A stretch of DNA of 63,403 bases, counting the filler, from Reclinomonas americana ATCC 50394 (lineage: Eukaryota): NCBI GenBank assembly GCA_048213135.1. It is 16 parts of 16 records of this genome, joined end to end, with 100 filler letters (N's around TTAATTAATTAA, not from the genome) between each part and the next. Parts side by side here need not be neighbours in the genome. Positions count along the whole stretch, not along the records: positions 27,117 to 35,712 come from AFZH01023076.1; positions 35,813 to 36,890 come from AFZH01023077.1; 14 more parts are not named here. One strand, written 5' to 3'. Positions within the stretch are counted from its first letter, which is position 1. Each line of letters opens with the position of its first letter. The translations under genes were made by a program, and so were the position numbers. Below the pieces are notes generated by a model. It was not told the origin of the DNA. It was given only the letters and a program-made list of their open reading frames with translations, and did no database searches. Positions 7,131 through 51,177 of the stretch are shown piece by piece.

Positions 7131-10100
7131 TCAGCAGTACAGCAAATAGAGCGTATCCGCTGCGGCCACCAACTTGGAGCCGTCGTCGCTGATGGCCAAG
7201 GAAGTCCATCTGCGAGTGGATTCCCGAGTCGTCCACGTCACGCCGGCATCGGTGGAGGTGTAAATCTGAGCATTGGACGCCGCCGCCACCAGCTTGGTGC
7301 CGTCGCCGCTGATGGTCGCAGTACGCCAGGCGCGCACGGACTCGCGAGCCGTCCACGTTACGCCGGAATCAGTGGAGGTGTAGATCTGATCAGTACCCGC
7401 ACCCACCGCAGCCACCAGCTTGGTACCGTCACTGCTGGAGGCCACCGAAACCCAGAGGCGACTGGTATCACGAGGCGTCCACGTCACGCCCGAGTCAGTA
7501 GAGGTGTAAATCTGATAGTTCGATGCCGCAGCCACGAGCTTGGTGCCGTCGCTGCTGGAGGCCACTGATGCCCAGGGGAGATCGGACTCCCGAGCGGTCC
7601 ACGTCACACCGGAGTCTGTGGAGGTGTAGATCTGACCGCCTTGCACCACAGCCACCAACTTGGTGCCGTCGCTGTTGGAGGCCACTCCACGCCATTGGCG
7701 ACTGGATTCACGACCCGTCCACGTAACACCAGTATCAGTGGAGGTGTAGATCAGACCACCAATCACCGCGGCCACCAGCTTGGTGCCGTCGCTGTTCATG
7801 GCTACCGCCACCCACACCAGTGCGGACGCGCGAGCCGTCCACGTCACACCGGAGTCAGTGGAGATGTAAATTTGCGTTCCAGATCCCACAGCTGCCACAA
7901 TGGTGCCGTCACTGCTGGAGGCCACTGAGATCCAAGGAGCAGCCACTTGCAGGCCATTCGACCCCACCGATGCCCACGTCACACCAGAGTCGGTGGAGGC
8001 ATAAACCTGACCAAAGTTCACAACAGCCACCAGCTTGGTGCCGTCACTGCTGGAGGCCACCGAGAACCAGCTGCGACCGGAATCACGAGCCGTCCACGTC
8101 ACGCCAGAGTCAGTGGAAGTGTAAATCAGTCCACCGTTTACCGTGGCCGCCAGCCTGGTGCCGTCACTGCTAGAGGCGACAGACTTCCAATTGCGACTGG
8201 ATTCGCGCGCCGTCCACGTCTCGCCAGAGTCAGTGGAAGTGTAGATTTGATCACCGTCCGCCACCGCCACCAGCTTCGTGCCGTCACTGCTGGAGGCCAC
8301 AGACTTCCAATTGCGACTGGAATCGCGTGCCGTCCACGTCTCGCCAGAGTCAGTGGAAGTGTAGATTTGATCAGCGTCCGCCACCGCCACCAGCTTCGTG
8401 CCGTCACTGCTGGAGGTCACTGCACGCCAACGGCGATTAGAGTCACGAGCCGTCCACGTCACGCCGGAATCGGTGGAGGTGTAAATCTGACGAAATGATG
8501 CCGCAGCCACCAGCTTGGTCCCGTCGCTGCTGGAGGCCACTGCTGACCAGTTGGAAAAGGTAGCACGAGCAGTCCACGTCACGCCGGAGTCAGTGGAGAC
8601 GTAAACTCGATCGGATTGCGCCGCAGCCACGAGCACGGTGCCGTCGCTGCTGGAGGCCACTGAAATCCAGTTGCGAATGGACTCACGGGCCGTCCACGTC
8701 GCACCCGAATCGACTGAGGTGAATATCCGACCAGTAGTTGTCGGCCCACCCACAACGGCCACCAGCTTCTTGCCGTCACTGCTGGAGGCCACAGACTGCC
8801 AACTGCCCACGGACGAGAGAGTGGTACCGGCGCCGCAGGTTGAGCAAGCGGGATCTGTGACAACAACCAGCCGAAAAGAATGTCGGCAGTCAGTATTTCG
8901 TCAAGAGCAGCAACAGCATCACACCACTCACCACTCCATGAAATAGCGCAGAGACACGTGCCGTCGCTCTTGCATGTTCCGTGACCGGAGCAGGTGGTGG
9001 CCGCCACGCACTTCACATTGCACGAGACACCGTAATAGTCAGAGTTGCACTGGCATGTGCCGTCACTCTTGCACGTTCCGTTTCCGGAGCACGTGGTGGC
9101 CGCCACACAGTTGACGTTGCACGAAGCACCGTAATAATCAGAGTCGCACTGGCATGAGCCGTCAGGGTTGCACGTTCCGTGGCCAGAGCACGTGGTGGCG
9201 CGACTGCAGTTGGTGTAGTTGCCGGAGCACGTCGACTTGCAGTCCACAAAACGGCCGCTTGGAGCGCTGAAGCGTGCAAATGACGCCCCAGCAGTGCAGC
9301 GACCGGGGTCGGCGATGCACTCGCAGCGTGCGCCGCTGCTGGGTGCATTGCACTTGCAGAAGCCGGAGACGCACAGACCGCCATTGATGGCCTGTCCGTT
9401 GCTCAGCTTGGCGCCAGCATCCACCGACAGACAGTCGGCATTCACCGTGCACGCAGAACGCGGAAGCGAGCAGTACAGGCCGTCGAAGCCCGGCTTGCAC
9501 ACACACTTGCCACTGGTGGCATCACACGTGCCGTTGCCGCTGCAGGTGGCGGCTGCGTCGCAGTAGACGGAGCACGAGGTGCCGAAGTACTTGGCGTTGC
9601 AGATGCAAGTGGCGTCACTGGAGCAAGTGCCCTGGCCACTGCAGGTGGTGGAGGCCTGTGGGTGGGGGAGGGAAAGTGAGAAGGGAGGGGAGAGGGGAGG
9701 GGAGAAAAGGAGAGGGAATGGAGGAGAGGGTAAGGGTAAGGGTAAGGTGGAGGGAGAAGTGAGGGGAGAAGTAAGGTGAGAATTGAGAGGGAAATGGGGC
9801 AGAGGGAAGAGGGAAGAGGAAAGAGGGAGAGGGTGAGGGTGACAGTGGGAGAGAGAGAGAGAGAGAGAATCTAAAAAGACGACGGAGAAATGAGGGTTAG
9901 TGTGGGAAGGGAGAGGGTAAGAGAGAGCGAGAAAGAGAAAGAAGAAGAGCGATGGTACACGGAAGAGCCGAGAGACAACATCAAACGCGAGAAAAAAGTA
10001 GAACATGGGAAAGAGGACAGCGTGAGAAGAATGAAGANNNNNNNNNNNNNNNNNNNNNNNNNNNNNNNNNNNNNNNNNNNNTTAATTAATTAANNNNNNN

Positions 10101-12919: not shown

Positions 12920-15900
12920 TCAGCAGTACAGCAAATAGAGCGCATCCGCAGCGGCCACCAACTTGGAGCCGTCGCTGCTGATGGCCAAGGAAGCCCATCT
13001 GCGACTGGATTCACGAGCCGTCCACGTCACGCCGGCATCGGTGGAGGTGTAGATCTGATCATTGGACGCCGCCGCCACCAGCTTGGTGCCGTCGCCGCTG
13101 ATGGTCACACTCGTCCAGAAGCGCACGGGCCCGCGAGCCGTCCACGTTACACCGGAATCAGTGGAGGTGTAGATCTGATCGACATCCCCGCGTGTAGTCG
13201 CCACCAGCTTGGTGCCGTCACTGCTGGAGGCCACCGGACCCCAGAGGCGACTGGATTCACGAGGCGTCCACGTCACGCCCGAGTCAGTGGAAGTGTAAAT
13301 CTGATAGTTCGATGCCGCAGCCACGAGCTTGGTGCCGTCGCTGCTGGAGGCCACTGATACCCAGGGTAGACTGGGTGCCCGAGCCGTCCACGTCACACCA
13401 GAGTCTGTGGAGGTGTAGATATTACTAGATTCATCAACAGCCACCAACTTGGTGCCGTCGCTGTTGGAGGCCACTCCAGTCCAGTCACGAATAGACTCAC
13501 GAGGCGTCCACGTTACACCAGTATCAGTGGAGGTGTAGATCAGACCACCACTCGCCGCGGCCACCAGCTTGGTGCCGTCACTGTTCATGGCTGCCGCCAA
13601 CCACGACTGTGCGGACGCGCGAGCAGTCCACGTCACACCGGAGTCCGTGGAGATGTAAATTTGTGTTCCAGGTCCCACAGCTGCCACGACGGTGCCGTCA
13701 CTGCTGGAGGCCACCGAGAACCAAGGAGCGGCCACTTGCAGGCCATTCGACCTCACCGATGCCCACGTCACACCAGAGTTAGTGGAAATATAGACCTGGC
13801 CGAGGTTCACAACAGCCACCAGCTTGGTGCCGTCACTGCTGGAGGCCACCGAGAACCAGCTGCGACCGGAATCACGAGCCGTCCACGTCACGCCAGAGTC
13901 AGTGGAAGTGTAAATCAGTCCACCGTTTACCGTGGCCGCCAGCCTGGTGCCGTCACTGCTGGAGGTCACAGACGTCCAATTACGACCGGATTCGCGCGCT
14001 GTCCACGTCACGCCCGAGTCAGTGGAAGTGTAGATTTGATCACCGCCCGCCACCGCCACCAGCTTCGTGCCATCACTGCTGGAGGCCACAGACTTCCAAT
14101 TGCGACCGGATTCGCGTGCCGTCCACGTCTCGCCCGAGTCAGTGGAAGTGTAGATTTGATCAGCGTCCGCCACCGCCACCAGCTTCGTGCCGTCACTACT
14201 GGAGGCCACTGCACGCCAAAAGCGACCAGAGTCACGAGCCGTCCACGTCACGCCGGAATCGGTGGAGGTGTAAATCTGACGGAAAAGTCCCGCAGCCACC
14301 AGCTTGGTCCCGTCGCTGCTGGAGGCCACTGCTGACCAGGCGGCAAAATCACCGCCAGCAGTCCACGTCACGCCGGAGTCAGTGGAGACGTAAACTCGAT
14401 CAAATAGCGCCGCAGCCACGAGCACGGTGCCGTCGCTGCTGGAGGCCACTGAAATCCAGTTGCGACTGGACTCACGGGCCGTCCACGTCGCACCCGAATC
14501 GACTGAGGTGAATATACGACCAGTAGTTGTCGGCCCACCCACAACGGCCACGAGCTTCTTGCCGTCACTGCTGGAGGCCACAGACTGCCAACTGCCCACG
14601 GACGCGAGAGTGGTATCAGCGGCGCAGGTTGAGCAAGCGGAACCTGATGGCAAACAGCCGAAGAGAATGTGGGTCGGAGTGACAGGTTAACTAGAGCAGC
14701 AACGGTACCACACCACTCACCACTCCATGACATATCACACAGACACGTGCCGTCAGGGTTGCACGTTCCGTGACCAGAGCACGTGGTGGCGCGACTACAG
14801 TTGGTGTAGTTGCCAGTGCATCCCGACTTGCAGTCCACAAAACGGCCGCTTGGAGCATTGAAGCGCGCAAATGACGTCCCAGCAGTGCAGCGACCGGGGT
14901 CGGCGATGCACTCGCAGCGTGCGCCGCTGCTGGGTGCATTGCACTTGCAGAAGCCGGCGACGCACAGACCGCCATTGATGGCTTGACCGTTGGTCAGCTT
15001 GGCGCCAGCATCCACCGACAGACAGTCGGCATTCACCGTGCACGAAGAGCGCGGCAACGCGCAGTACAGGCCGTCGAAACCCGGCTTGCACACACACTTG
15101 CCACTGGTGGTGTCACACGTGCCGTTGCCGCTGCAGGTGGTGGCTGCGTCGCAGTAGACAGAGCACGAGGTGCCGAAGTACTTGGGGTTGCAGATGCACG
15201 TGGCGGTACTGGAGCACGTGCCCTGGCCGTTGCAGGTGGTGGAGGCCTGCGGGTGGGGGAAGGGGAAGGGAGAAGGGAAGGAAGAGGGTAAGGGAGAAGG
15301 ATGAGGGAACGGAGGTGAGGGTGAGGGTAAGGGTAGGTACAGGGAGAATTTGAGAGGGAATGGAGGAGAGGGGGAGGGAAGAGGGAGAGAGAAGAGGGAA
15401 ATGGGGGAGAGGGAGAGGGTGGGGTGAGGGTGAGGGTGGGGTGAGGGTGAGGGAGAGTGAGAGAGTGGCGAGTCTCATCGTAGGTGGGGACAGCGGGAGA
15501 GAGAGAGAGGAGGGAGAGAGAGAGGAGGAGAGAGAGAGAAGAAAGAAATAACGAAAGGACGGAACGGAAGTAAAGTAGGTAAGGGTTNNNNNNNNNNNNN
15601 NNNNNNNNNNNNNNNNNNNNNNNNNNNNNNNTTAATTAATTAANNNNNNNNNNNNNNNNNNNNNNNNNNNNNNNNNNNNNNNNNNNNTGCATAAGAGAGC
15701 TGCGGAAAGAACGAAAGCAAATCTGTGAAAAGAAGGCGCCAAGCAGTTGACAAGCCACTCACACGAACTCCGTCACACCAATCATCACCTCTTTCTCTCC
15801 CTCACTCACCTGGCAGAACTTGTCGCAATTCGTGCCATAATAGTTGAGGGCGCACTGATCACACGCCGCGCCAGTCCAGTTCTTGGTGGAGCACACACAC

Positions 15901-17964: not shown

Positions 17965-20900
17965 TTAACAGTACAACAGATAAATGGTATCCGCAGCGAC
18001 AACCACCTTGGTGCCGTCGCTGCTGGAGGACACTGCATTCCAGTTGCGAATGGCATCACGAGCCGTCCACGTCACGCCAGAGTCGGAGGAGGAGTAGATT
18101 TGGCCACTGCTTGTTACGACAGCCACCAGCTTGGTGCCGTCACTGCTGGAGGCCACGGATCGCCACACGCGATTGGCGTCAGTCAGTCGAGCAGTCCACG
18201 TCACGCCAGAGTCGGTGGAGGTGTAGATCTGACCGACACTCACCACACCCGCCAGCTTCGTGCCGTCGCTGCTGGAGGCGATTGAGAACCAGCTGCGATT
18301 GGCATCCGTCTGTCTGGGTGTCCATGTCGCACCAGAGTCAGTGGAGGTGTAAACCTTTCCACCATTCACCGCAGCCGCCAGCTTGGCGCCGTCACTGCTG
18401 GAGGCCACACCACGCCAGTTGCGACTGGAATCTTGCGTTGACCAATTGGCACCAGAGTCGGTGGAGGTGTAAAGCAGAGAGTTTTGCGCCGCAGCCACCA
18501 TCTTGGTGCCGTCGCTGCTGGAGGCGAGAGAGCTCCAGTTGCGATTGGCATTGGTGACTCCAGCAGTCCACGTCACACCAGAGTCGCGGGAGACGTACAA
18601 CTGAGAATTGTTGGCCCCAGCCACCAGCACGCTACCGTCGCTATTGGAGGCCACCGACAGCCAGTTGCGATGAGACTCGCGCGCCGCCCACGTCACGCCA
18701 GAGTCATTCGAGACAAAAATATTAGTACCAGTCCCCACAGCGGCCAGCACGTTACTGTCGCCACTTACGGTCACTGCCGTCCATATAACGGCGCCTGGTG
18801 GTGTACGCACGGATGCCAGCGCTGTCCACGTTGCACCAGAGTCAGCGGAGATGTAAATCTGACCCGGGACCACACCGGCCACAAGCCTGGTGCCGTCACT
18901 GCTGGAGGCCACTGAACCCCACTGGCGACTCGAGTCACGAGCCGTCCACGTCACGCCAGAGTCGGTGGAAACGTAGATCTGACCAGGGAATGCCACAGCC
19001 ACCAGCTTCGTGCCGTCACTGTTAGAGGCCACTGATGTCCAGTTGCGAGTGGCATCGCGAGGCGTCCACGTCACGCCAGAGTCGGCGGAGGTGTAAAGCT
19101 GACCAGATGACTCAGCAGCCACAAGCATCGTGCCGTCGCTGCTGGAGGCAAGGGATATCCAGTTGCGAGTGGCATCGCGAGCTGTCCACGTCGCACCAGA
19201 GTCAGTGGAGGTGTAAAGCTGACCAGATGACTCAGCAGCCACAAGCTTCGTGCCGTCACTGCTGGAGGCCACTGCTTGCCACGCGCGAGTGGAATCGCGA
19301 GGGGTCCATGTCGCACCAGTATCAATGGAGGTGTAAATCTGGTCGTTGTTTGCTACAGCCACGAGCTTGGTACCGTCAGTACTGGAGGCCACTCCAGTCC
19401 ACATGCGACTGGACTCACGACCCAACCACGTTACGCCCGAGTCCGTGGAGGTGTAAATCTGGTTGTTGTTTGCCACAGCCGCCAGCTTGGTGCCGTCGTT
19501 GCTGGAGGCCACAGATTGCCACTGGCGATTGGCATCTGTGAATCGAGTCGTCCACGTTGCGCCAGAATCAGTGGAGGTGTACATCAGACCAGTGTTCACC
19601 GCAGCCACCAGCTTGGTGCCATCACTGCTTGAGGCCAGTACTCTCCACCGACTAACAAATGTCAGAGTTGGAGCAGCAGCGCAAGTCGAGCACGCAGAAT
19701 CTGGTTTTTTGACCAACAACACATCAGCAGTTGGAACAACACGTATGCAATCACCATAAACAGCATCACCACTCACCNNNNNNNNNNNNNNNNNNNNNNN
19801 NNNNNNNNNNNNNNNNNNNNNTTAATTAATTAANNNNNNNNNNNNNNNNNNNNNNNNNNNNNNNNNNNNNNNNNNNNCGTGGCCGCCACGCAGTTCACGT
19901 TGCACGATGCGCCGTAGTAGTCCGAGTTGCACAGACACGTGCCGTCACTCTTGCACGTTCCGTGGCCAGAGCACGTGACGGTGGGACTGCAGTTGCAACT
20001 GGCATTGGTGTAGTCGCCAGTGCACTGGCACGAGCCGTCAGGGTTGCACGTTCCGTGGCCAGAGCACGTGGTGGCCGCCACGCAGTTCACGTTGCACGAT
20101 GCGCCGTAGTAGTCCGAGTTGCACTGGCATGTGCCGTCGCTCTTGCACGTGCCGTGACCGGAGCACGTGGTAGAGGGACTGCAGTTGCAGCTGGCATTGG
20201 TGTAGTCGCCCGTGCACAGGCACGTGCCGTCACTCTTGCACGTTCCGTGACCGGAGCATGTCGTGGCCGCCACGCAGTTCACGTTGCACGATGTGCCGTA
20301 GTAGTCCGAGTTGCACTGGCATGTGCCGTCGCTCTTGCACGTGCCGTGACCGGAGCACGTGGTAGAGGGACTGCAGTTGCAGCTGGCATTGGTGTAGTCG
20401 CCCGTGCACTGGCAGGTGCCGTCACTTTTGCACGTTCCATGACCGGAGCATGTCGTGGCCGCCACACAGTTCACGTTGCACGATGCGCCGTAGTAGTCCG
20501 AGTTGCACTGGCATGTGCCGTCGCTCTTGCACGTGCCGTGACCAGAGCACGTGGTAGAGGGACTGCAGTTGCAACTGGCATTGGTGTAGTCGCCCGTGCA
20601 CTGGCACGTGCCGTCACTCTTGCACGTTCCATGACCGGAGCACGTCGTGGCCGCCACGCAGTTCACGTTGCACGATGCGCCGTAGTAGTCCGAGTTGCAC
20701 TGGCATGTGCCGTCACTCTTGCACGTTCCATGTCCAGAGCACGTGACGCTGGGACTGCAGTTGCAGCTGGCATTGGTGTAGTCGCCCGTGCACTGGCACG
20801 AGCCGTCAGTCTTGCACGTTCCGTGACCGGAGCACGTGGTAGAGGGACTGCAGTTGCAACTGGCGTTGGTGTAGTCGCCCGTGCACTGGCAGGTGCCGTC

Positions 20901-24754: not shown

Positions 24755-27700
24755 TCAACAGTACAACAGATAAATGGTATCCGCAGCGACAACCACCTTG
24801 GTGCCGTCGCCGCTGGAGGATACTGACGCCCAGTTGCGATTGGCATCACGAGCCGTCCACGTCACGCCAGAGTCGGAGGAGGAGTAGATTTGGCCACCGT
24901 TTGTGACGACAGCCACCAGCTTGGTGCCGTCACTGCTGGAGGCCACGGATCGCCAGGCGCGATTGGCGTCAGTCAGTCGAGCAGTCCACGTCACGCCAGA
25001 GTCGGTGGAGGTGTAGATCGTATTGTTGCTTGCCACAGCTACTAGCTTCGTGCCGTCGCTGCTGGAGGCGACTGAGAACCAGCTGCGATTGGCATCAGTC
25101 TGTCTGGGCGTCCATGTCACGCCAGAGTCGGTAGAGGTGTAAATCTGACCACCACTCACCACAGCCGCCAGCTTGGCGCCGTCACTGCTGGAGGCCACAC
25201 TACGCCAGTTGCGACTGGAATCTTGCGTTGACCAATTGGCACCAGAGTCGGTGGAGGTGTAAAGCAGAGAGTTTTGCGCCGCAGCCACCATCTTGGTGCC
25301 GTCGCTGCTGGAGGCGAGAGAGCTCCAACTGCGAGTGCCATTCGTGACTCCAGCAGTCCACGTCACACCAGAGTCGCGTGAAACAAACAACTGAGATGAA
25401 GTGGCCCCAGCCACCAGCACGCTACCGTCGCTATTGGAGGCCACCGATGTCCAGGAGCGCTGAGACTCGCGCGCCGCCCACGTCACGCCAGAGTCATTCG
25501 AGACATAAATGTGAGTAGTATTACCCACAGCCGCCACCACGTTACCGTCCCCGCTTACGGTCACTGCACTCCATACAACAGAACCTTGTGCACGCAATCC
25601 GGCGGAAGCGAGCGCTGTCCACGTTGCACCAGAGTCAGTGGAGGTGTAAATCTGACCCGGGACCACACCGGCCACAAGCCTGGTGCCGTCACTGCTGGAG
25701 GCCACTGAACCCCACTGGCGACTCGAGTCACGAGCCGTCCACGTCACGCCAAAGTCGGTGGAAACGTAGATCTGACCGGGTGACGCCACAGCCACCAGCT
25801 TCGTGCCGTCACTATTAGAGGCCACTGATGTCCAGTTGCGAGTGGCATCTCGAGGCGTCCACGTCACGCCAGAGTCAGTAGAGGTGAAAAGCCGACCAGA
25901 TGCCTCAGCGGCCAATAGGTTGGTGCCGTCGCTGCTGGAGGCAAGAGATATCCAGTTGCGTACGAGGTCACGAGCTGTCCACGTCGCACCAGAGTTAGTG
26001 GTGGTGTAAAGTTGACCAGATGTCTCCGCTGCCACAAGCTTCGTGCCATCACTGCTGGATGCAACCGAAATCCAGGCGCGAATGGAATCGTGAGGGGTCC
26101 ACGTCACGCCAGAGTCAGTGGAGGTGTAAATCTGGCTGTTGTTCGCCACAGCGACCAGCTTGGTGCCATCGCTGCTAAAGGCCACAGATCGCCACTGCCG
26201 ATTCGCATCCGTAAGTCGAGCCGTCCACGTCACGCCCGAGTCTGTGGAAGTGAAAATCTGGCTGCTATTTGCCACAGCCGCCAACTTGGTGCCGTCACTA
26301 TTAGAGGCCACTCCAGTCCACTGGCGATTGGCATCCGAAAGTCGCGCTGTCCATGTCGCACCAGAGTCAGCGGACGTGAAAAGTAGGCCGATGTTAACAG
26401 CAGCCAGCAGCTTGGTGCCGTCACTGCTGGAAGTCAGTGCTGTCCACCGACTAACAAATGCAAGAGTTGCAGCAGCAGCGCAAGTCGAGCACGCAGAATC
26501 TGTTTTTTGAGAAAACGCGATCATGTCAGCATTCCAACAAAGTCTTGTAAATTCACCATAAACAGCATCATCACTCACCACTCCATGATATGCCACAGCT
26601 GCAAGTGCCGTCACTCTTGCATGTTCCGTGACCAGAGCACGTTGTCGCCGCCACACAGTTCGAAACAGCAGTGCCGCACGCCGCCCCGTCAAAACCAGCG
26701 CTGCACTGGCACGTACCGTCACTCTTGCACGTTCCATGTCCAGAGCACGTGGTGGACGGACTGCAGTTGCAACTGGCATTGGTGTAGTCGCCAGTGCACT
26801 GGCACGTACCGTCCGTCTTGCATGCTCCGTGGCCAGAGCACGTCGTGGCCGCCACACAGTTCACGTTGCACGATGCGCCGTAGTAGTCAGAGTTGCACTG
26901 GCACGTACCGTCACTCTTGCACGTTCCATGTCCAGAGCACGTCGCAGTGGGACTGCAGTTGCAACTGGCATTGGTGTAGTCGCCAGTGCACTGGCACGTG
27001 CCGTCCGTCTTGCACGNNNNNNNNNNNNNNNNNNNNNNNNNNNNNNNNNNNNNNNNNNNNTTAATTAATTAANNNNNNNNNNNNNNNNNNNNNNNNNNNN
27101 NNNNNNNNNNNNNNNNAGTGCACTGGCACGAGCCGTCAGGGTTGCACGTTCCGTGGCCAGAGCACGTGGTGGCAGGATTGCAGTTGGTGTAGTTGCCGGA
27201 GCACGTCGACCTGCATTCCACAAAACGGCCGCCTGGAGTGCTGAAGCGCGCAAACGACATGAAGCCGGAGCAACGACCGGGATCGGCGATGCACTCGCAG
27301 TGCGCGCCGCTGCTGGGTGCATTGCACTTGCAGAAGCCGGAGACGCACAGACCGCCATTGATGGCTTGGCCGTTGGCCAGCTTGGCGCCGGCGTCAACCG
27401 AGAGGCAGTCGGCGTTCACCGTGCATGAAGAACGCGGAAGCGAGCAGTACAGGCCGTCGAAACCCGGCTTGCACACGCACTTGCCGCTGGCGGTGTCGCA
27501 CGTGCCGTTACCGCTACAGGTGACAGCCACGTCGCAGTAAACGGAGCACGAGGTGCCGTAGTACTTGGCGTTGCAGATGCATGTTGCGTCGCTGGAGCAA
27601 GTGCCATGGCCGCTGCAGGTGGTGGAGGCCTGGCGGGTGGGGAAAGGGGAAGGAATAGGGGGAGTGAGAAGGGAGAGGGAGAAGGGTGAGGGAATGGAGG

Positions 27701-28078: not shown

Positions 28079-29487
28079 CCTCCCTCTCTCTTTCTCTCTT
28101 TCTCTCTCCACCACACGCACCTGGCAAAACTTGTCGCAATTCGTGCCATAATAGTTGAGGGCGCACTGATCACACGCCGAGCCCGTCCAGTTCTTGGTGG
28201 AGCACACACACGATCCGGTGCTGTCGCACGTTCCGCGACCGTTGCACGTGGTGGCTGCGTCGCAGAACTTGCTGCACGTGGCACCGTAGTAGTTCGCCTT
28301 GCACTGGTTGCACGAGGCGCCGGTGAAGTTGCCGGTGCACACACACTGGCCATTTGTGTCGCACGTGCCGTTGCCGGAGCAGGTCTTGACGGCGATGCAG
28401 AGCTTGGAGCAGTTGGCGGTGAAGTAGTTGGTGAGGCACACGCACTGCCCGCTCGAGTTGCAGCTGCCATTGTAGCTGCACGTGGTGCCGGGGTTGCAGA
28501 GGGTGTTGCATGTGGCGCCGTAGTAGTCTGGCTTGCACTGGTTGCACGAGGTGCCGGTGAAGTTGCTTGTGCACACACACACGCCGCTCGAGTTGCAGGT
28601 GCCGTGGCCGTTGCATGTCGTCGCCGCAGTGCACAAGACGTTGCATGTGGCACCGTAGTAGTTGGTGTTGCACTGGCAGGTACCAGCAGTGCTGCAGGTG
28701 CCATTGTTGTTGCAGGTGGCGGCCGAGCACTTTGTGTCACACTTGGCACCGGAGGAGCCCGCGTTGCAGACGCATGTGCCACTGCCGGTGCACGAGGTGG
28801 CGTTGTTTGAGCATGTCACATACGGATGACACGAGCAGAAGGGACCAGCCCAGCTGCATGAGCGGAAGAGTGGAGTGAGTGGGGGGAAATGCACACAGAG
28901 AATGGGGCAGCACAAGCGAACTCACGTGGCGCAAACGCTGGTACCGCTGCTGGTGGTGTAGCAGTTGTTGTGGCAGGTGCACTTTCCGCTGGAGCAGAAA
29001 CCCTGTGAGGAAGGAGGGGAGGGATGAGAGAGAGAGAGGAGGAGGAGAAGGAGGAGGTGGAGGAGGAGAGAAAGGAGGAGGAGAGAGGAGGTGGAGGAGG
29101 AGGAGGAGGGAGGAAGATTTCAATGCCCTCAACAGTAACAGTGCTCAGCACGGCGAAGGGGTTGTGAGTGTGTGAGAGAGGAGGACACGCAACGGAGAAT
29201 CTTTCTTTCGATATCTTGCATGCAAAACAGAAAACGCAACATTCACTCCGCACTCGTTGCCGGTGGCGGTGCACGTTCCGCCTGTGCGCAAATGGTTAAT
29301 GTGTAAGTGAGTGTGTGCGAGAGAGAGCAAGAAGAGAAAGAAAAGAGCAGAGAGAGAGAGAGAGAGAGTGAGAGAGTCGCGCAAATTTATATGTACATGT
29401 GTCGGTTCATTGTTTACCTTGCGCGTACGCCATGCTGGTCACTGCGACGAGGCACGCCACAAAGAGTGCAATCTTCATTGCACACAT
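24755..29487 (-). CDS. Array copy D: secreted EGF stalk + 14-repeat propeller protein
   Basis: Signal peptide exon MCAMKIALFVACLVAVTSMAYAQ (ATG 29487) and the same exon layout as A. The stalk exon is interrupted by the gap at 27017. Propeller exon 24755-~26499 ending YLLYC*. Closest paralog of C. Confidence 0.85.
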
Positions 29488-30171: not shown

Positions 30172-33100
30172 TCAACAGACTAGCAGATAAATGGTATCGG
30201 AAGCGACAATCGCCTTGGTGCCGTCGCCGTTGGAGGCCACAGATCCCCAGCCGCGAGCGGCATCTCGAGGCGCCCACGTCACGCCAAAGTCGGTGGACTT
30301 GTAAATCCTACCTCCGACGCCCTCAGTTGCCACCAAACTGGCACCGTCACTGCTGGAGTCCACCCCACTCCAGTAGCGCACAGTATCACGAGCCATCCAC
30401 GTCGCGCCAATATCTGTGGAGGTGTAGATTTGCCCACCGTTCACCGCGGCCACCAGCAACGTACCATCACCATTGGAGGCCACTGTGGTCCAATTCCGAC
30501 TGGTATTTCGTGGGATCCACGAGTCGCCAGTGTCATTGGAAGTGTAGATCTGACCACCGTTTACAACGGCCACCAGAATCGAGCCGTCGCTGCTGGAAGC
30601 CACTGAACCCCAAGAGCGACTGAACTCTCGCGGGTTCCACGTCACGCCTGCATCAGTCGACAGGAAGATCTGACCACCGTTGACCACAGCGGCTAGCACG
30701 CTGCCGTCACTGCTTGATGTTACTCCAGCCCAGCTGCGACTTGACTCACGAGCCGTCCACGAAACGCCATAGTCAGTGGATACAAAAATCTTGTCACTGT
30801 CAGCAACAGCCACCAGTAAGCTACCGTCGCTGCTGGAGGCCATTCCAGTCCAAGTGCGAAGCGACTCGCGCCCCGACCACGTCTCGCCACCGTCAGTGGA
30901 GATGTAAATCGGTGTGAGAATACCGGCAGCCATCGCAACGTTACCGTCGCTGCTCAAGGCCACATTAGTCCACAGACCGTCACCAGTGCTGGTGCCGTAT
31001 GCATGCAAGCCAGACATCAATTCCGTCCAAGTCTCGCCAGAGTCAGTGGAAGTGAAAATCTCACCAGGGCTCGCCACTGCCACCAGATGGGTACCGTCAC
31101 TGCTAGAGGCGACTGACACATAGATGCGATTGAGTCCGCGTTCCGTCCACGTGACACCCGAATCAGTGGACGTGTATATCTGGCCGAAATTGAAAATCCC
31201 AGTAACAGCCACCAGCTTGGTACCGTCACTGCTGGAGGCCACTGAATTCCAGAAGCGCCGAGCATCAGTAGCTCGAGCCGTCCACGTCACGCCAGAATCT
31301 GTCGAGGTGAAAATCTGGCCAGTTGCACCCAAGTTTCCGTTGTCCACAGCCACCAGCTTGGTACCGTCACTACTGGATGCCACACCAGCCCAGTTGCGAC
31401 TGGAATCACGAGCCGTCCACGTCAGGCCAGAATCGGTGGAGGTGAAAATGCGGTTGTTTTGCACTACAGCCACCAGCTTGGTACCGTCGTCGCTCGAGGC
31501 CACAGAAACCCAGTTGCGACTGGAATCACGAGCAGTCCACGTCACCCCAGAATCAGTGGAGGTGTAAAGTAGACCAACAACCACAGCAGCCACCAGCTTC
31601 GTTCCGTCACCGCTCGAGGCCACTGTCGCCCACTGAGCACCGAAAGCCCGAGCAGTCCAAGTCACTCCAGAGTCAGAGGACGTAAAAATCTGGGTATCCT
31701 GGCCAGCAGCCACCAGCTTGGTGCCGTCACTGCTGGAAGCCACTGCAGTCCAAAGGCGTTCGGCATCCGTTAGGCGAGCCGTCCACATCTTGCCCGAGTC
31801 CGTGGAGGTGAAAATCTGACCACCAAACGAAACAGCCACAAGTTTGGTTCCGTCACTGCTGGAGGCCACTGACTTCCACCGGCCGGCAAACGCAAGTGTC
31901 GGATACGCAGTGCATGAGGAACAAGCAGGATCTGGCGTGCAACACAGCGGACAGGTCAGCGCACTGGTGACTTCACACGCTCAAGAAGATCATCCCGACT
32001 TACCACCACTCCATGAGAATTCGCAGCTGCAAGCTCCATCGCTGCCACAGGTGCCGTGGCCGGAGCACGTCGTTGCAGCCGCGCAGTTTGGATTACACGG
32101 GAACACGTAAACCTGTTTGGCCACTGCCGCCAGCTTGCTGCCGTCACTGCTGAGCGCCACAGCCGACCAGAAACGCGCGGAATCACGGGACGTCCACGTC
32201 ACTCCCGAGTCATTCGAAGTGTAGATCAGGCCGTTGTTCTCCGCAGCCGCCAGCCGGCTACCGTCGCCGCTGGAGGCCACCGAGATCCACGCACGCGCGG
32301 AATCACGAGCCGTCCATGTCGCGCCCGAGTCAGTCGACGTGTAGATCTGGTCACCCTGCGCAGCAGCCACCAGCTTGGTGCCGTCGCTGCTGGAGGCCAC
32401 TGACCGCCAGCTGCGAACGGAATCACGAGCTGTCCAGTTCTCGCCCGAGTCAGTCGAGGAGTAGATCTGATCGTTGTTCGCAACAGCCACCAGTTTGGTG
32501 CCGTCACTGCTGGAGGCCACCGAAACCCAGGTGCGAGCGGAATCACGAGCCGTCCACGTCACGCCAGAGTCGGTGGAGGTGTAAATCTGACCGGTACTGA
32601 AAGCTCCACCTTCAGCAGCCACAAGTTTGGTGCCGTCGCTGCTGGAGGCCACCGAGATCCAGGTGCGAGCGGAATCACGTGGAGTCCACGTCACGCCAGA
32701 GTCAGTGGAGGTGTAAATCTGCCCACCGTTACTCGCAACAGCCACCAGCTTGGTGCCGTCACTGTTCAACGCTACAGACTTCCACCGGCGATCGGAATCG
32801 CGGCCCGCCCACGTCGCGCCTCCGTCAGCCGACGTGTAGATCCGAGTATCCGACCCCACCGCCGCCATCTTGGTGCCGTCACCACTGTAGGCAATTGCAA
32901 TCCACGACGTGAAGCCGAGAAGTCCTTGGGAGCTCACTTCAGTCCACGCGACGCCAGAATCAGCGGAGGTGTACATCTGACCACCAGCGCCAACGCCAGC
33001 CACCAGCTTGGTACCGTCACTGCTGGAGGTCACCGATGCCCACAGGCGACTGGATTCACGAGCCGTCCACGTCTCACCAGAGTCAGTGGAGGTGTAGATC

Positions 33101-36100
33101 TGGCCGCCGCTCACCGTCGCCACCAGCTTCGTGCCGTCACTGCTGGAGGTCACTGCACTCCACGTGCGATTGGATTCACGAGCCGTCCACGTCTCGCCCG
33201 AGTCAGTGGAGGTGTAGATCTGATCATTTCGCGCAACAGCCACCAACTTGCTGCCGTCACTGCTGGAGGCCACAGACCTCCAGTTGCGAGTGGATTCACG
33301 AGGAGTCCAGTTCTCGCCCGAGTCAGTGGAGGTGAATATCTGATCACCGCTGGCCACCGCCACGAGATAGGTGCCGTCACTACTGGATGCCACTGAAGCC
33401 CAGCTGCGATTGAAACCACGAGGCATCCACGTCACACCCGAGTCAGTGGAGGTGTAAATCAGTCCACTTTGATCCGCCGCCACGAGCTTGCTGCCGTCGT
33501 CGTTGGAGGCCACCGAGAACCATTCACGGCCCTGATCACGAGCCGTCCACGTCACACCCGAGTCGGCCGAGGTGTAGATACGATCACCGAAATTCGCAAC
33601 GGCCACCAGTTTGGTGCCGTCGCCGCTGGAGGCCACCGACGTCCAGTGACGATTCGATTCACGAGCCGTCCACGTTGCACCTGAGTCGGTGGAGGTGAAG
33701 ATCTGGGCATTCTGCGCCACAGCCACCACCTTGGTGCCGTTACTGCTGGAGGCCACCGAAACCCAGCTGCCGACATATCCGAGAGCGGCACCACCCGGAG
33801 CAGAGCAGACGGAGCATGTGGGCCCTGTGACAACGATTCAGTACGATATTTGAAGATTAATATCTTAACATCAACTGTACCACGCACCACTCCAAGGGCT
33901 TGCGCAGTTGCACGTTCCATCGGAGCCACACGCACCGCGTCCATTGCACGTCGTAGAGGCCTCACAGTAAACGCTGCAAGATGAACCGTAATAATGTTCT
34001 ACGTTGCACTGACACGTGCCGTTACTGTTGCACGTTCCGTGACCCGAGCACGTGGCAGTGGGACTGCAGTTGCAGCTGGCATTGGTGTAGTCGCCCGTGC
34101 ACAGACACGAACCGTCAGTTTTGCATGTTCCATGACCGGAGCACTTGACCGATGGGCTGCAGTTGCAGCTGGGATTGGTATAGTCGCCCGTGCACGTGCA
34201 TGTGCCATTGACGTTACATGTACCGTGGCCAGAGCACGTGACAGTGGGACTGCAGTTGCAGTTCGAATTGGTGTACCCACTCGCGCACAGACACGTCCCA
34301 TTACTCTTGCATGTTCCGTGACCAGAGCATGTGACAGTGGGACTGCAGTTGCAGTTGGCATTGGTGTAGTCACCCGTGCACAGACACGTGCCATCAGTCT
34401 TGCACGTCCCGTGACCCGAGCACGTTGCGGTGGGATTGCAATTGCAGCTGGCATTGGTGTAGCCGACGGCGCACTGGCATGTGCCATCACTCTTGCACGT
34501 TCCATGACCAGAGCACGTCGTGGTCGGATTGCAATTGCAGCTGGCATTGGTGTAGCCGACGGCGCACTGGCATGTGCCATCACTCTTGCACGTTCCATGG
34601 CCGGAGCATGTCGCGGTCGAACTGCAGTTACAGCTCGCGTTAGTGTAGTCGCCCGCGCACGTGCAGGATCCATTGGCGTTGCACGATCCGTGACCAGAGC
34701 ACGTGGTGCTGGGACTGCAGTTGCAGCTGGCATTGGTGTAGTCGCCCGTGCACGTGCAGGATCCATTAGTGTTGCACGATCCGTGACCAGAGCACGTCGC
34801 AGTGGGACTGCAGTTGCAGTTGGCATTGGTGTAGTCGCCCGTGCACACGCAAGTTCCATTGGCGTTGCACGTTCCGTGACCAGAGCACGTCGCAGTGGGA
34901 CTGCAGTTGCAGCTGGCGTTGGTGTAGTCGCCAGTGCACTGACACGTGCCGTCACTCTTGCAGGTTCCGTGACCAGAGCACGTAGCAGTGGGACTGCAGT
35001 TGCAGCTGGCATTGGTGTAGTCGCCCGTGCACTGGCATGTGCCGTCAGTGTTGCACGTTCCGTGACCAGAGCACGTGACGCTGGGACTGCAGTTGCAGCT
35101 GGCATTGGTGTAGTCGCCCGTGCACTGGCATGTGCCGTCAGTGTTGCACGTTCCGTGACCAGAGCACGTGACGCTGGGACTGCAGTTGCAGCTGGCATTG
35201 GTGTAGTCGCCCGTGCACGTGCAGGATCCATTAGTCTTGCACGTTCCGTGACCAGAGCACGTTGCGGTGGGACTGCAGTTGCAGTTGGCATTGGTGTAGT
35301 CGCCCGTGCACTGACATGTACCGTCAGTCTTGCACGTTCCATGTCCAGAGCAGGTGGAAGTGGGACTGCAGTTGCAGGTGGCGTTGGTGTAGTCGCCCGT
35401 GCACTGGCAAGTTCCATTGGCGTTGCACGTTCCGTGACCAGAGCACGTGACGCTGGGACTGCAGTTGCAGGTGGCGTTGGTGTAGTCGCCCGTGCACTGG
35501 CAAGTACCATTGGCGTTGCACGTTCCGTGACCAGAGCATGTTGTAGTGGGACTGCAGTTGCAGCTGGCGTTGGTGTAGTCGCCCGTGCAGAGACAGGTAC
35601 CGTCACTCTTGCACGTTCCATGGCTGGAGCACGTCGCGGTGGGACTGCAGTTGCAGCTGGCATTGGTGTAGTCGCCGGTGCATTGGCAGGTGCCGTCCGT
35701 CTTGCACGTTCCNNNNNNNNNNNNNNNNNNNNNNNNNNNNNNNNNNNNNNNNNNNNTTAATTAATTAANNNNNNNNNNNNNNNNNNNNNNNNNNNNNNNN
35801 NNNNNNNNNNNNCGTGCACTGGCACGTGCCGTCCGTCTTGCAGGCTCCGTGGCCAGAGCACGTCGTGGCCGCCACACAGTTCACGTTGCACGATGCGCTG
35901 TAGTAGTCCGAGTTGCACTGGCATGTGCCGTCACTCTTGCACGTTCCATGTCCAGAGCACGTGGTAGAGGGACTGCAGTTGCAACTGGCATTGGTGTAGT
36001 CGCCCGTGCACTGGCACGTGCCGTCGCTCTTGCACGTTCCGTGACCGGAGCATGTCGTGGCCGCCACGCAGTTCACGTTGCACGATGCGCCGTAGTAGTC

Positions 36101-38168
36101 CGAGTTGCACTGGCATGTGCCGTCACTCTTGCACGTGCCGTGACCAGAGCATGTGACGCTGGGACTGCAGTTGCAGCTGGCATTGGTGTAGTCGCCCGTG
36201 CACTGGCACGAGCCGTCGGGGTTGCATGTTCCGTGACCAGAGCACGTCGTGGCAAAATTGCAGTTGGTGTAGTTGCCGGAGCACGTCGACTTGCAGTCCA
36301 CAAAACGGCCGCTCGGTGCGCTGAAGCGCGCAAACGACATAAACCCAGAGCAGCGACCGGGATCGGCGATGCACTCGCAGTGCGCGCCGCTGCTGGGTGC
36401 ATTGCACTTGCAGAAGCCCGACACACAGAGACCGCCATTGATGGCTTGGCCGTTGGCCAGCTTGGCGCCGGCATCCACCGACAGACAGTCGGCATTCACC
36501 GTGCACGAAGAGCGCGGAAGCGAGCAGTACAAGCCGTCGAAACCCGGCTTGCATACGCACTTGCCGCTGGCGGTGTCGCACGTGCCGTTGCCACTGCAGG
36601 TGAAAGCCGCGTCGCAGTAGACAGAGCACGAGGTGCCGTAGTACTTGGCGTTGCAGATGCATGTTGCGTCACTGGCGCAAGTGCCCTGGCCGCTGCAGGT
36701 GGTGGAGGCCTGCGGGTGGGGGAGAGACGAGTGAGAAGGGAGGGGAGAAAAGGAGAGGGAGAAGGGCGAGGGAATGGAGGAGAGGGTGAGGGTAAGGTAG
36801 AGGGAGAAGTACGGGAAGAAGACAGGGGAGAAATGAGAGGCAATGGAGGAGAGGGGGAGGGAAGAGGGAGAGAGAAGAAGGAAATGGGGGNNNNNNNNNN
36901 NNNNNNNNNNNNNNNNNNNNNNNNNNNNNNNNNNTTAATTAATTAANNNNNNNNNNNNNNNNNNNNNNNNNNNNNNNNNNNNNNNNNNNNAGACAGAAGA
37001 GGGAAATGGGGGACAGAAAAGAGGGAAGAAGAAAGAGAGAGAGGGTGAGGGTAAGGGTGAGAGATAGAGAAACAGGCGAAACAGGAGAAAATGAGAAGAA
37101 TGCAGAAAGCAGATTGCACAACACGGAAAGTGAGATTGGTGAGGCGAGACTACAGCGCGAAGAGAAGAAAGAGAAAACAGACTTTGTTGTGGAAGATGGC
37201 AAGTGAGTATTCCACTCTCTCTCTCTCTCACGCCCTCCCTCTCTCTTTTGTACACTCTCTCCTCTCTCCCTCACTCACTCACCTGGCAGAACTTGTCACA
37301 CGTAGTGCCATAATAGTTGAGGGCGCACTGATCGCACGCCGCGCCAGTCCAGTTCTTGGTGGAGCACACACACGACCCGGCGCTGTCACACGTTCCACGA
37401 CCGCTGCACGTGGTGGCTGCGTCGCAGAACTTGCTGCAGGTCGCTCCGTAGTAGTTCGACTTGCACTGGGTGCACGAGGCGCCGGTGAAGTTGCCGGTGC
37501 ACAGACACTGGCCATTGGCGTCGCACGTGCCGTTGCCGGAGCACGTTTTGACGGCGGTGCAGAACTTGGAGCAGTTGCTGGTGTAGTAGTTAGTGAGGCA
37601 CACGCACTGTCCGCTCGAGTTGCAGCTGCCGTTGAAGTTGCACGTGGTGCCGGGATTGCACATGGTGCTGCACGTGGCACCGTAGTAGTCCGGCTTGCAC
37701 TGGTTGCACGAGGCGCCAGTGAAGTTGCCAGTGCACACGCACTGGCCGCTCGAGTTGCAGGTGCCGTGGCCATTGCATGTCATTGTTGGATTGCAGAAGA
37801 TGTTGCACGTGGCGCCGTAGTAGTCCGTGTTGCACTGGCAGGCACCTGCAGTGCTGCAGGTGCCGTTGTTGTTGCAAGTGGCGGGCGAGCACTTTTGCTC
37901 ACACTTGGCACCGGAGAAACCCGCGTTGCAGACACAGGTGCCACTGCTGGTGCACGAGGCGGCGTTGTTTGAGCATGTCACGTATGGGTGGCACGAGCAG
38001 AAGGGACCGGCCCAGCTGCATGAGCGAAAAAGGGAGAGGAGTGAGTGAGTGGGAAGAAACACAAAGAGAATGGGCAGCACGGACGACTCACGTGGCGCAC
38101 ACATTGGCACCGGTGGTGGACGTGAAGCAGTTGTTGTGGCAAGAGCACTTTCCGCCGGAGCAGAAACC
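30172..38168 (-). CDS. Array copy E: EGF stalk + two 14-repeat propeller heads separated by one EGF module (5' exons lost in gap)
   Basis: EGF exons ~38092-38168, ~37283-38015, 35813-~36709 and ~33888-35712. Head 1 plus linker EGF at ~32004-33824 (...QVYVFPCNPNCAAATTCSGHGTC...WSG). Short intron with GTAAGT donor, then head 2 at 30172-~31931 ending YLLVC*. Linkage across the gaps at 35713 and 36891 is assumed. Confidence 0.8.
33990..35712 (-). repeat. Coding tandem repeat of 93-bp (31-aa) EGF units in copy E
   Basis: Units of CSPxxTCSGHGTCxxxGxCxCTGDYTNASCN repeated up to the gap. Confidence 0.92.
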
Positions 38169-38398
38169 CTGTGTGGACGGAGAGGGAGGGTGAGGGAGAG
38201 GAGGAGGAGGAGGAGGAGGAGGAGGAGGAGGAGGAGGAGGAGGAGGAGGAGGAGGAGGAGGAGGAGGAGGAGGAGGAGGAGGAGGAGGAGGAGGAGGANN
38301 NNNNNNNNNNNNNNNNNNNNNNNNNNNNNNNNNNNNNNNNNNTTAATTAATTAANNNNNNNNNNNNNNNNNNNNNNNNNNNNNNNNNNNNNNNNNNNN

Positions 38399-41300
38399 CC
38401 AACACCTCTCGATACAGTTGCTCGGCCTCGACGAGATTGCCACCGGCTTGCATGCAACCAGCGAGATTGCTCATGGAAGTCAGCGTGTCCGGATGCTTGT
38501 CACCAAGCACCTCTCTTCTCAACCCCAACACTTCCCGAGAAAGTCGCTCGCCTTCAACGTGGTTGCCACTCGCGTGGACACAAAAGGCAAGCTCGTTCAT
38601 CGTCGTCAGAGTTCGCGGGTGCCTGTCACCAAACACCTCACGGCAAAGCTCCAACACTTCGCGAAACAGTGGCTCGGCCTCTGAGAATCGGCCGTCGTTG
38701 CTGACACAGAGAGCGATATTGTGCATGGACCCCAGCGTGTGTGGATGTCTGTCACCGAGCACTTGAAGCTGCAATGCTAAAGTTTCACGGTGCAGTTGTT
38801 CGGCCTCCACGAGATTGCCGCTTTTCCGCAAACAGTACGCAAGGTTGTTCATGGTCACAAGTGTGTTTGGATGCTTGTTGCCAAGCGCCTCCTGGGACAG
38901 AACCAACACCTCCCGAGCCAATCGCTCCGCTTCGACGAGATTGCCACTCTCGCGCAAGCAATCACTGAGATTGTTGAGGGAAATCAGTGCGTCTGGATGC
39001 CTGTCACCAAGCAGTTCGCGGTTCAACGTCAGCACCTCGCGATACAGTCGCTCAGCTTCGGAATACTTGCCGCTCTGACGGAGACAATATGCGAGACAGT
39101 TCTTGGATCCTAGCGTTGCAGGATGTCTGTCACCAAGAACTTCCTGCCTCAACACCAAGACCTCTCGGTGAAGTCGCTCGGCCTCGACGAGGCTGCCACT
39201 CGCTTGGATGCAGTTTGCGAGATGGTTCATAGATGCCACAGTTGCTGGATGCTTAACACCATAAGATTCCTGCATTGTCGCCAGCACATGTCGACACAGT
39301 CGCTCAGCTTCAGCAAGATTACCGCTTGCTTCGATACAGTTGGCAACCTTGTTCATGGACGCTAGCGTCCACGGATGTCTCTCGCCAAATACTTCGCGTG
39401 TAACAGCCAGCACTTCACGATGCATACGCTCGGCCTCAACGAGACCGCCGCTCGCTTCGATGCAACCAGCAAGGCTGCTCACGGACGCCAACGTCTTTGG
39501 ATGCCTATCGCCAAATACTTCGCGGATGATCGCCAACACATCCCGGTGCAATCGCTCAGCTTCGCCAAGATTGCCGCTCGCTTGGATGCAACTAGCAAGG
39601 TTGCTTGTGGACGCCAGCGTCTCTGGATGCCTGTCTCCGAACACTTCGCCTGTCAACGACAACACCTTTCGATGCAATCGCTCGCCTTCAGCAAGTTGAC
39701 CGCTGTCCCTCAAACAATTGGCAAGATTATTCATGGAAGTCAGCGTGTCAGGGTGTTTATCCCCTAGCACCTCACGCCTCATTGTCAACACCTCTCGATG
39801 AAGTTGCTCGGCTTCGGTGAGAATGCCTCTTGAATGTATACAATCAGCAAGATTGCCAGTGGCCCATGCACTTCGCGCATGAGCACCAACACTTCCCGAT
39901 ACAGTCTCTCGGCCTCGACAACGTCGCCACCCGCATGAACACAGTTGGCGAGGTTATTCAGAGAGACAAGCGTGCCTGGATGCTTGTCACCAAGCGCTTC
40001 CCGTCTTGTCGCCAACACTTCACGATACAACCGCTCGGCACTATCAAGACGACCAATGTTTTTGAGAACATCGGCAAGCTGCAGTCGCAGTGCCGATACC
40101 AATCCCACGTCATCCCCTAGTTCAAGAGTCTGCAGATGCTCCTCCAGAAGGCCGACTGCCTCGCTGTATCGACGTGCACTGGTCAGAAGCTCCGCCACAC
40201 ACTGTGTCTTGCAGTGCTGTAAATCTCGGTCCATTTGGTCGGCAAAATGTTCACGGAGCCATTCAGCACACGCAATCGCCACATCCGAACCAAAATCGCC
40301 GACAGGTAATCGTTTTTCCACCAGGCGCGCCAACCGCACAACACCGTCAAGCCGCATATTCATCGTCAGACTCGCCAGCGCATTCCAATTCCACCGGCGA
40401 TGCATCACGGACAGCAAGTCGCTCCACAGTACTTGCAAACACGGGCGCAGGTCACTGAGCATATCCTCACTAACGCTGTGATCCGTCGCCTGCGCTAGAC
40501 CACACATGACGACGTCAGACACGACATCTCGACAGACAGGCAGCTGGTGTCTTCGCTCTCCCGATTCCAGCCACTCCATCACAAGGTCGTGCACTCGGTA
40601 CTCCACTCGCGAAGAAAACGCGACCGAATCCCCAACAGCCATCATCCGACACATAGCATCACATGAGTGCGATGATTTGGCTTGTACCAACATGGACCGA
40701 CGAAGCCATTCAAGCGCGCTCGTCACGTCTTCGTCAATGTCGCCACTGCAACCTTCGACATCAATGCCCAGCGCTCGTTGTAACAACAGAAAATCCAGCT
40801 GATCCTCTGCTTCTGGGATCACCTCGCGCCCCAGCAACCGCACCAGCAACGTCACAGTGCGACTCGTGCAACATACGCGCATCTGTTGCAGCGCTGCGAC
40901 CAAGAACAGCACCTGCCGCATCAGCGGCGAGCATTCGGCCAAATTCTTGTCCATGAGCTGCTCCAAAGCCGACACTCGAGTCTCGGTCAGGCGCTCTTGC
41001 AACGCCTCACTTGCCAGCGTCTCCAGTGACAGTCGCGCAAGCATGCTGCGGATGCAGATCTCACGTCACTCACAGGGCGCACTCGATTTAAACATAACAC
41101 CACAAGTAAGTACTTTAAACAGAGCGCCACTCGAAACGCCTGTGGTTGCAATGCCGTCGCTTGCGCCACCTCAAGAGAGATTTCTTCAGGAGCATCAATC
41201 TCCTGCCGCACATACGCTGTCACATCATCGACCTCCACATCGCCCACGGGCACATGGACGACCGTCGCCGCGCTCAACAACGGCGACTGCTGCAGTTCGC

Positions 41301-51130: not shown

Positions 51131-51177
<47 letters not shown>

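Follow-up and report, generated by a model that had tools for sequence, protein, structure and literature searches.

How can a large globular head be carried by a protein rod that is built from small, disulfide-bonded epidermal growth factor (EGF) modules? The question is raised by a 63,403-nt stretch of DNA from Reclinomonas americana ATCC 50394 (assembly GCA_048213135.1; 16 genomic parts joined by filler), called the window below. On the minus strand, from 7131 to about 38200, five tandem paralogous genes, A to E, lie in intron-rich eukaryotic DNA. Each of them encodes an EGF stalk followed by a head exon at its end, and gene E has two heads, E1 and E2, giving six heads in total. A preliminary description had proposed that, in gene E, a head of about 560 amino acids (aa) sits inside a laminin-type EGF module, between the seventh and eighth cysteines, and that every protein ends on a cysteine.

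Both the position and the terminal cysteine were found throughout the family, with a head that is slightly longer than proposed. All six heads are preceded by a C-x2-C motif (Cys6 and Cys7), contain no inner Cys, and are followed by one Cys (Cys8), the insert comprising 566–578 aa. Both Cys codons are used at Cys6 and at Cys8. The five terminal heads have a stop codon (four TGA, one TAA) directly after Cys8; in the internal head E1, Cys8 is followed in one open frame by a 3-residue linker and by Cys1–Cys5 of the next EGF module. In every copy Cys7 and Cys8 lie within one exon and share one open frame, so that their relation to the head is independent of splicing, and only the link to Cys1–Cys5 depends on it. 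The head-end pattern has six matches in the window and none in each of 100 shuffles. Elsewhere, the corresponding DNA pattern was matched in no viral sequence, 14 times in metagenomes, and 11 times in genomes; these 25 were discarded as chance hits, none having a tblastn match to the head.

The junctions that would join the head exon to Cys1–Cys5 were predicted from the sequence. The intron proposed at 33825–33887 was recovered as a phase-1 GT-AG intron of 63 nt, located within loop c, i.e. between Cys5 and Cys6. Its position is shared by all five junctions with an assembled donor exon (gene C was excluded from the junction counts, as its donor exon falls in a gap), and retention would lead to stops or a frameshift, in the case of 33887–33825 to three in-frame stops. 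For the second intron of gene E, placed earlier at 31932–32003, the acceptor stands, and the donor is either 32003 (72 nt, better consensus) or 32006 (75 nt, homologous to the other copies). Splice alternatives that drop the C-x2-C, which had been named as a threat to the proposal, are not favoured by the sequence: either donor leaves the motif intact, and the nearest in-frame AG further downstream is found at residue 47–48 in E1, A, and B and at residue 20–21 in E2, D, and C. Because these alternative acceptors are unconserved and would cut into the propeller, a wrong splice site is disfavoured. The E1 exon (33824–32007) is symmetric (1-1), both of its ends being in phase 1 and at the same loop-c point.

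One could still suspect that the gene model is wrong, i.e. that other splice sites drop the C-x2-C, or that the heads are separate genes or misassembled foreign DNA, since the junctions were deduced from sequence, the window is rich in gaps, and the relatives of the head are prokaryote-like. However, positions 30172–35712 are free of N, so that the head region of gene E crosses no assembly gap, E1 runs into the following EGF module in one open frame, and the intron position is identical at all five visible junctions. Together with the behaviour of the alternative acceptors, this makes such an error very improbable.

Which type of module hosts the heads? Of the 77 stalk modules obtained by parsing, 62 have six cysteines and are of the teneurin type, and 15 have eight, three of them in the 5′ stalk exon of each gene; the eight-Cys module is therefore not, as had been assumed, the ordinary stalk unit. 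The 5′ stalk exons with eight-Cys modules match Pfam EGF_laminin with 65.9 and 49.4 bits (cut-off 21), and the tandem stalk passes EGF_Teneurin and EGF_2. The C6-x2-C spacing occurs in 15 of 15 eight-Cys but in 0 of 62 six-Cys modules, and a Trp in loop c is found in 5 of 15, in 0 of 62, and in all five visible host modules. Host modules have Cys1–Cys7 in all five visible copies, and the one Cys past the head brings the number to eight. The uninterrupted eight-Cys modules of the same genes share the C6-x2-C7 spacing and the 3-residue linker past Cys8. By count and spacing, the host is an eight-Cys module, as far as its sequence can tell. The Cys3–Cys4 spacing is normal (5 residues) in all five host modules, unlike that expected for an insertion of the laminin L4 type.

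Several observations weigh against this assignment. The eight-Cys and six-Cys modules collapse to just 2 and 7 loop types, respectively, so that the count of 0 of 62 rests on 7 loop types. At four of the five junctions, the Cys1–Cys5 half of the host scores higher against the six-Cys than against the eight-Cys repeats, and for loop c the best match is the Trp-bearing eight-Cys type in just two of five cases. Homogenisation with neighbouring repeats of the same exon could explain a six-Cys-like front half. The laminin-type host proposed earlier thus fits the C6-x2-C spacing, while its descent from an eight-Cys module, by insertion into an existing LE loop, is putative.

Each head contains 14 blades and 13 Asp-boxes (SxDxGxTW), and Pfam Sortilin-Vps10 and BNR are above their cut-offs. 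In Asp-box propellers, the repeats are located between strands 3 and 4. Such propellers are described as having n−1 boxes and as being closed by 1+3 velcro (PMC2716378, accessible part), and the same box number and, in the predicted models, velcro closure by the N-terminal strand were found here. The AlphaFold model of E1 (39-row alignment) is a confident all-beta head with a mean predicted local distance difference test score (pLDDT) of 88.2, in which the EGF flanks are not resolved. The model of the terminal head D (6-row alignment) has a mean pLDDT of 83.4, with values <50 only at residues 1–5 and 297–304. In the D model, a strand (7–12) begins right after Cys7 (residue 6), and Cys8 (residue 580) comes immediately after the last strand (575–579), the two strands belonging to one propeller. 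Single seven-bladed propellers align to it either at about 13–292 or from 4–5 through 579–580, e.g. 4j0w (Z 29.8, root-mean-square deviation (rmsd) 2.5, 280 aligned) and 3ow8 (Z 28.8, rmsd 2.6, 276 aligned), both in the latter range, and the AIP1 structure 1nr0 aligns with residues 4–580 (Z 27.8, rmsd 6.2, 554 aligned). Because of these ranges, the N-terminal segment is predicted to close the last blade; the E1 model has the same closure.

The sequence register leads to the same place. In the inner repeats, the Trp of the next blade lies 18 residues past the Tyr of strand c in 61 of 74 matches, while Cys8 is at Tyr+4 and Cys7 at Trp−12 in the terminal heads and at Trp−14 in E1. In an 18-residue register, two positions of the absent 14th Asp-box are thus taken by cysteines, its Asp by Cys8 and its Gly by Cys7, and a cross-strand Cys7–Cys8 disulfide at the missing hairpin is the simplest reading. 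Cys parity, conservation in six of six heads, the neighbouring strands of the D model, and prokaryote-type homologs with a terminal Cys pair (see below) all argue for the clamp that had been proposed, and it probably pins both ends of the head; the bond itself we infer from these data. Against it, the pLDDT of the E1 model is <50 at residues 1–12 and 578–606, and the block of the D model that contains Cys7 averages 50.

The same low-confidence N-terminal residues would be compatible with a different use of the terminal cysteines, i.e. linking chains as dimers or to another surface protein, with Cys7 free or otherwise bonded. The C-terminal Cys is exposed, and teneurins dimerise via unpaired EGF cysteines, according to the accessible part of PMC3278476. 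Yet the internal head E1 retains both cysteines although its Cys8 is not terminal, and in all six heads the two are present, at what the model shows as the ends of neighbouring strands. An inter-chain role is accordingly improbable, and the intramolecular clamp is retained.

The homologs of the head bear on the origin of the clamp. The set consists of the 391 top-ranked proteins listed, mostly from metagenomes; those with names belong to bacteria, among them Verrucomicrobia, Patescibacteria, and Spirochaetes. Two EGF motif patterns matched none of the 391 listed proteins, which is weak evidence of absence. An Atlas search returned only leads <0.9, all of them Asp-box clusters. For 303 complete propellers in 216 homologs, a flanking Cys was present on both sides in 6 cases, on the N side only in 10, and on the C side only in 3 (Fisher p 6e-7, with rows that are related and homologs that are not independent). 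This count supersedes a cruder one, in which 322 proteins had yielded 212 blocks, 5 with a Cys on both sides, 3 on the N side only, and 3 on the C side only. The patterns of both counts missed some units; P0044 and the first propeller of P0330 were added by hand for the tree.

Clamp-like Cys pairs therefore occur in homologs without EGF, which speaks against a clamp supplied by the module. P0330, which lacks EGF, has a C-x2-C at Trp−15/−12 and a Cys at Tyr+4, the exact register of the window heads, and P0047 has Trp−13/Tyr+4, twice. Such registers would be expected if the clamp is real but native to the head, i.e. if a propeller with a terminal disulfide was fused after a complete six-Cys EGF module and the likeness to laminin is secondary; the six-Cys-like front half of the host at four of five junctions and the intron that splits Cys1–5 from Cys6–8 also agree with a fusion. 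However, the pairs are rare (6 of 303), the units of P0330 and P0047 rank low by BLAST score (118–161 and 150–223, respectively, among 297 units), the four nearest units by tree path, a placement with weak support, lack the clamp, and the same genes carry uninterrupted modules with the matching spacing and linker. We regard a head-borne clamp as unlikely, and, with the rival origins of the clamp taken into account, an insertion into an existing eight-Cys module as likely.

P0330, P0047, P0284, and P0044 are secreted-looking prokaryote-type proteins with a Cys flanking the propeller on each side, i.e. probable clamps without EGF. In P0217, a prokaryote-type protein, the distance from CGDG to CDDG is 11 residues in two DUF4215 repeats and 247 and 287 residues in two others, so that a propeller sits inside two of four DUF4215 Cys-rich repeats (residues 49–340 and 424–680). 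Together with the flanking-Cys homologs, this sequence pattern supports the view that the propeller is also inserted into further hosts, at that same hairpin, and it backs the proposed geometry.

Where did the head come from? The heads are 60–70% identical to repetitive seven-bladed units, and the nearest ones by BLAST and by tree path are those of P0101, P0079, P0111, and P0056, which are tail-fibre-like and have no clamp Cys. P0111 has PHROG tail-fibre matches, and its residues 313–505 match phage tail fibres. In these four proteins, as well as in P0002, P0066, and similar ones, a C-terminal beta domain seems to be split by the propeller. A phage search found no insert-free version of the C-terminal host domain of P0111, and the putative insertion there rests on the identity that we assume for this domain. 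FastTree grouped the window heads with the four tail-fibre-like units (0.96). An IQ-TREE quick tree of 44 of the 311 units does not have this grouping as a supported branch; it leaves the donor open and gives the monophyly of the window heads a support of 18. It unites the six second propellers on one starred branch (95), as would be expected if all heads descend from one double-propeller ancestor. To judge from its sequence relatives, the head is of prokaryotic or phage type, and the insert is unrelated to laminin domains, in agreement with the independent origin suggested earlier. P0174, which combines RCC1-like repeats, 14 Asp-box blades, leucine-rich repeats, ephrin-receptor-like Cys-rich repeats, and membrane helices but not the clamp register, may represent a separate eukaryotic capture of this head.

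The heads evolve under purifying selection, with ratios of nonsynonymous to synonymous divergence (dN/dS) of 0.24–0.63 in all five pairs. Positions that differ between paralogs cluster in the b-c loop and around each blade's first Trp. At these top-face positions, dN is 3 to 7 times that of other positions, and it exceeds dS only in the A/B pair. This site class was picked after the data had been seen, which weakens it as an argument for diversification.

Taken together, we propose that the genes encode secreted rod-and-head proteins, in which a signal peptide would be followed by an EGF stalk and a double seven-bladed Asp-box propeller. The head would be a closed ring, with the first strand completing the last blade and both ends lying side by side at the missing 14th Asp-box hairpin. 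Cys7 and Cys8 of a laminin-type eight-Cys EGF module would be situated at these ends and form the 7–8 disulfide, so that the head would hang from loop d, and the rod would either continue past it (gene E) or stop on Cys8 (terminal heads). The exon with Cys6, Cys7, head, and Cys8 would be spliced in phase 1 onto the upstream Cys1–Cys5, completing the module. As the symmetric E1 exon could be repeated without breaking the frame or the Cys parity, the double head of gene E may have arisen by such a repetition. By analogy with the proposed origin of teneurins and with the tail-fibre relatives, binding of extracellular ligands, e.g. bacterial surfaces or glycans, by the top faces is the likeliest function. 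This explanation as a whole, a prokaryote- or phage-type propeller clamped in loop d of an eight-Cys EGF module and acting as an extracellular binding head, is in our judgement probable.

A more far-reaching scenario can be drawn. The protist may have acquired the receptor-binding propeller of a phage tail fibre, duplicated it, and fixed it in loop d in the form of an exon cassette, from which a tandem family of secreted bacterium-binding proteins with diversifying top faces arose; the propeller would then be a mobile plug-in that enters hosts at the missing hairpin, the clamp having arisen several times. We consider this possible but doubtful.

Nested domains in laminin-type EGF (LE) rods are not new as such. 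For laminins and teneurins, the following statements refer to the accessible parts of the papers cited. The cysteines of LE modules pair 1-3, 2-4, 5-6, and 7-8 (PMC5338690, PMC6744579), and the L4 domains (domain IV) in the alpha and gamma chains of laminin and in perlecan resemble the heads in being globular domains within an eight-Cys LE module that leave the disulfides undisturbed and lie beside a continuous rod (PMC5338690, PMC6744579). L4 is, however, a beta-sandwich between Cys3 and Cys4 (PMC5338690, PMC6744579), i.e. in a different loop, as the preliminary description had stated, whereas the heads are double propellers between Cys7 and Cys8 and usually form the end of the protein. The preliminary description had overlooked both the propeller insertions in other hosts and the LF domain of laminin beta, which, like the insert of about 580 residues in alpha3 and alpha5, follows an LE module without a 7-8 bond, at the loop-d position (PMC5338690). 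Both resemble the heads in their place at an LE module's loop-d end, and the alpha3/alpha5 insert is of similar length. In contrast to LF, for which the LE module gives up the 7-8 bond, the heads keep both cysteines in six of six copies; LF is a beta-sandwich, unlike the predicted double propeller of the heads, and fold and origin are unrelated. No description of a propeller in an EGF module with the 7-8 pair kept was found in the literature searched, which left most subscription papers and supplements outside its coverage. Nesting in LE rods is thus known, including at the loop-d position, but our searches turned up no case in which a retained 7-8 pair encloses a propeller.

Teneurins share with the five genes the EGF type and the presence, on a single big exon, of a large prokaryotic-type region (PMC3278476), which has been proposed to help a choanoflagellate to bind prey (PMC3278476). 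They differ in being membrane-anchored by a type II helix and in having a Cys-rich domain, an NHL region, and a YD region placed in series after the EGF modules, whereas the heads are nested between two cysteines and a signal-peptide-like exon is present. The head and stalk exons showed no membrane helix, the Pfam scans of the exons revealed neither an NHL nor a YD family, and the genes end after the head, so that the likeness does not go beyond the EGF type.

Other Asp-box propellers, i.e. GH74 xyloglucanases, Ycf48, Vps10/sortilin, and highly repetitive prokaryotic and phage propellers (PF25852), share the SxDxGxTW box, the n−1 boxes, and the velcro closure. Highly repetitive Asp-box propellers are a known class, and the accessible part of PMC9218822 mentions neither EGF nor an insertion. 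GH74 structures head the Foldseek list for the head model, with 14–18% identity in structural alignments, which is a likeness of fold only, and a sequence match to 6p2o was obtained with residues 158–366 of the query (E 2e-9). GH74 enzymes have two catalytic Asp residues facing each other over the cleft that separates their propellers. The double propellers of AIP1/WDR1 (1nr0, 2ymu) share two seven-bladed propellers and an N-terminal strand that closes the second; they are intracellular, have WD40 blades and no disulfide clamp, and the likeness is again one of fold only. In integrin beta, the PSI/hybrid/beta-I arrangement places large domains within a Cys-rich module that has a long-range disulfide, and reelin repeats combine EGF with Asp-box repeats. 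Neither is known to contain an EGF module with a propeller in its Cys7–Cys8 loop.

Table 1. Positions of heads, host module parts, introns, and stalk exons in the window
Feature	Position	Strand	Remarks
Terminal head exon, gene A	7131..8854	minus	Cys7 8837, 566-aa head, Cys8 7136, stop TGA
Terminal head exon, gene B	12920..14643	minus	Cys7 14626, 566-aa head, Cys8 12925, stop TGA
Terminal head exon, gene C	17965..19700	minus	Cys7 19683, 570-aa head, Cys8 17970, stop TAA
Terminal head exon, gene D	24755..26499	minus	Cys7 26482, 573-aa head, Cys8 24760, stop TGA; copy modelled
Terminal head exon E2, gene E	30172..31931	minus	Cys6 31923, Cys7 31914, 578-aa head, Cys8 30177, stop TGA
Second phase-1 intron, gene E	31932..32006	minus	Donor 32006 or 32003
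3-residue linker and Cys1–Cys5 of next EGF module	32007..32094	minus	Same exon as E1
Cys8 of E1	32095..32097	minus	Four residues past Tyr of last strand c
Head E1	32098..33804	minus	569 aa without Cys; 14 blades and 13 Asp-boxes; double seven-bladed propeller (predicted)
Cys6-x2-Cys7 of host module, E1	33805..33816	minus	Cys6 33816, Cys7 33807
Phase-1 GT-AG intron in loop c (Cys5–Cys6)	33825..33887	minus	63 nt; predicted
Host EGF Cys1–Cys5 and start of loop c	33888..33966	minus	End of gene E stalk exon
Tandem six-Cys teneurin-type EGF stalk, gene E	33967..36712	minus	One assembly gap inside
5′ stalk exon, gene E	37283..37993	minus	Three eight-Cys modules without insert, loop d of 8 residues; Pfam EGF_laminin 65.9 bits; homologous exons in genes A–D
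Signal-peptide-like first coding exon, gene D	29418..29478	minus	By eye from translation

The signal-peptide-like first exon is visible in four genes, the homologs of the gene D exon starting at 23996 (C), 17296 (B), and 11672 (A), likewise recognised by eye; that of gene E falls in or beyond an assembly gap. The donor of the first intron is GC in C (23936), B (17236), and A (11612) and GT in D (29418), at an identical position. No counterpart of the third coding exon of the other four genes was found in gene B (about 17110–16430), whose 5′ stalk exon begins later than in the other copies. The sequence suggests that a deletion shortened the stalk of gene B, and it may alter the Cys parity. In every gene, the EGF array is interrupted in the second stalk exon by a conserved non-repeat stretch with Cys loops of 19–20 residues (36400–36560 in gene E, with homologs in D, C, B, and A). 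Directly upstream of gene E, at 38346–41855 on the minus strand, a long TPR_10/TPR_12 array follows a Walker-A-like motif. A large multi-exon gene on the plus strand (43020–51941) has Asn/Gly/Thr-rich stretches and hydrophobic C-terminal segments, and the open reading frames scanned had no Pfam match. An open reading frame at 53083–53457 on the minus strand has a borderline match to the C-terminus of Integrator subunit 5 (27.3 bits, cut-off 27).

If the proposed explanation is true, a domain would be nested in an EGF module at the place where laminin drops the disulfide, with the bond kept around a prokaryotic-type insert of about 570 residues. EGF rods could thus display foreign binding heads with their architecture intact, by means of a repeatable symmetric exon. 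It would also offer a natural, testable example of how a large closed domain can be grafted onto a small scaffold held by disulfides.

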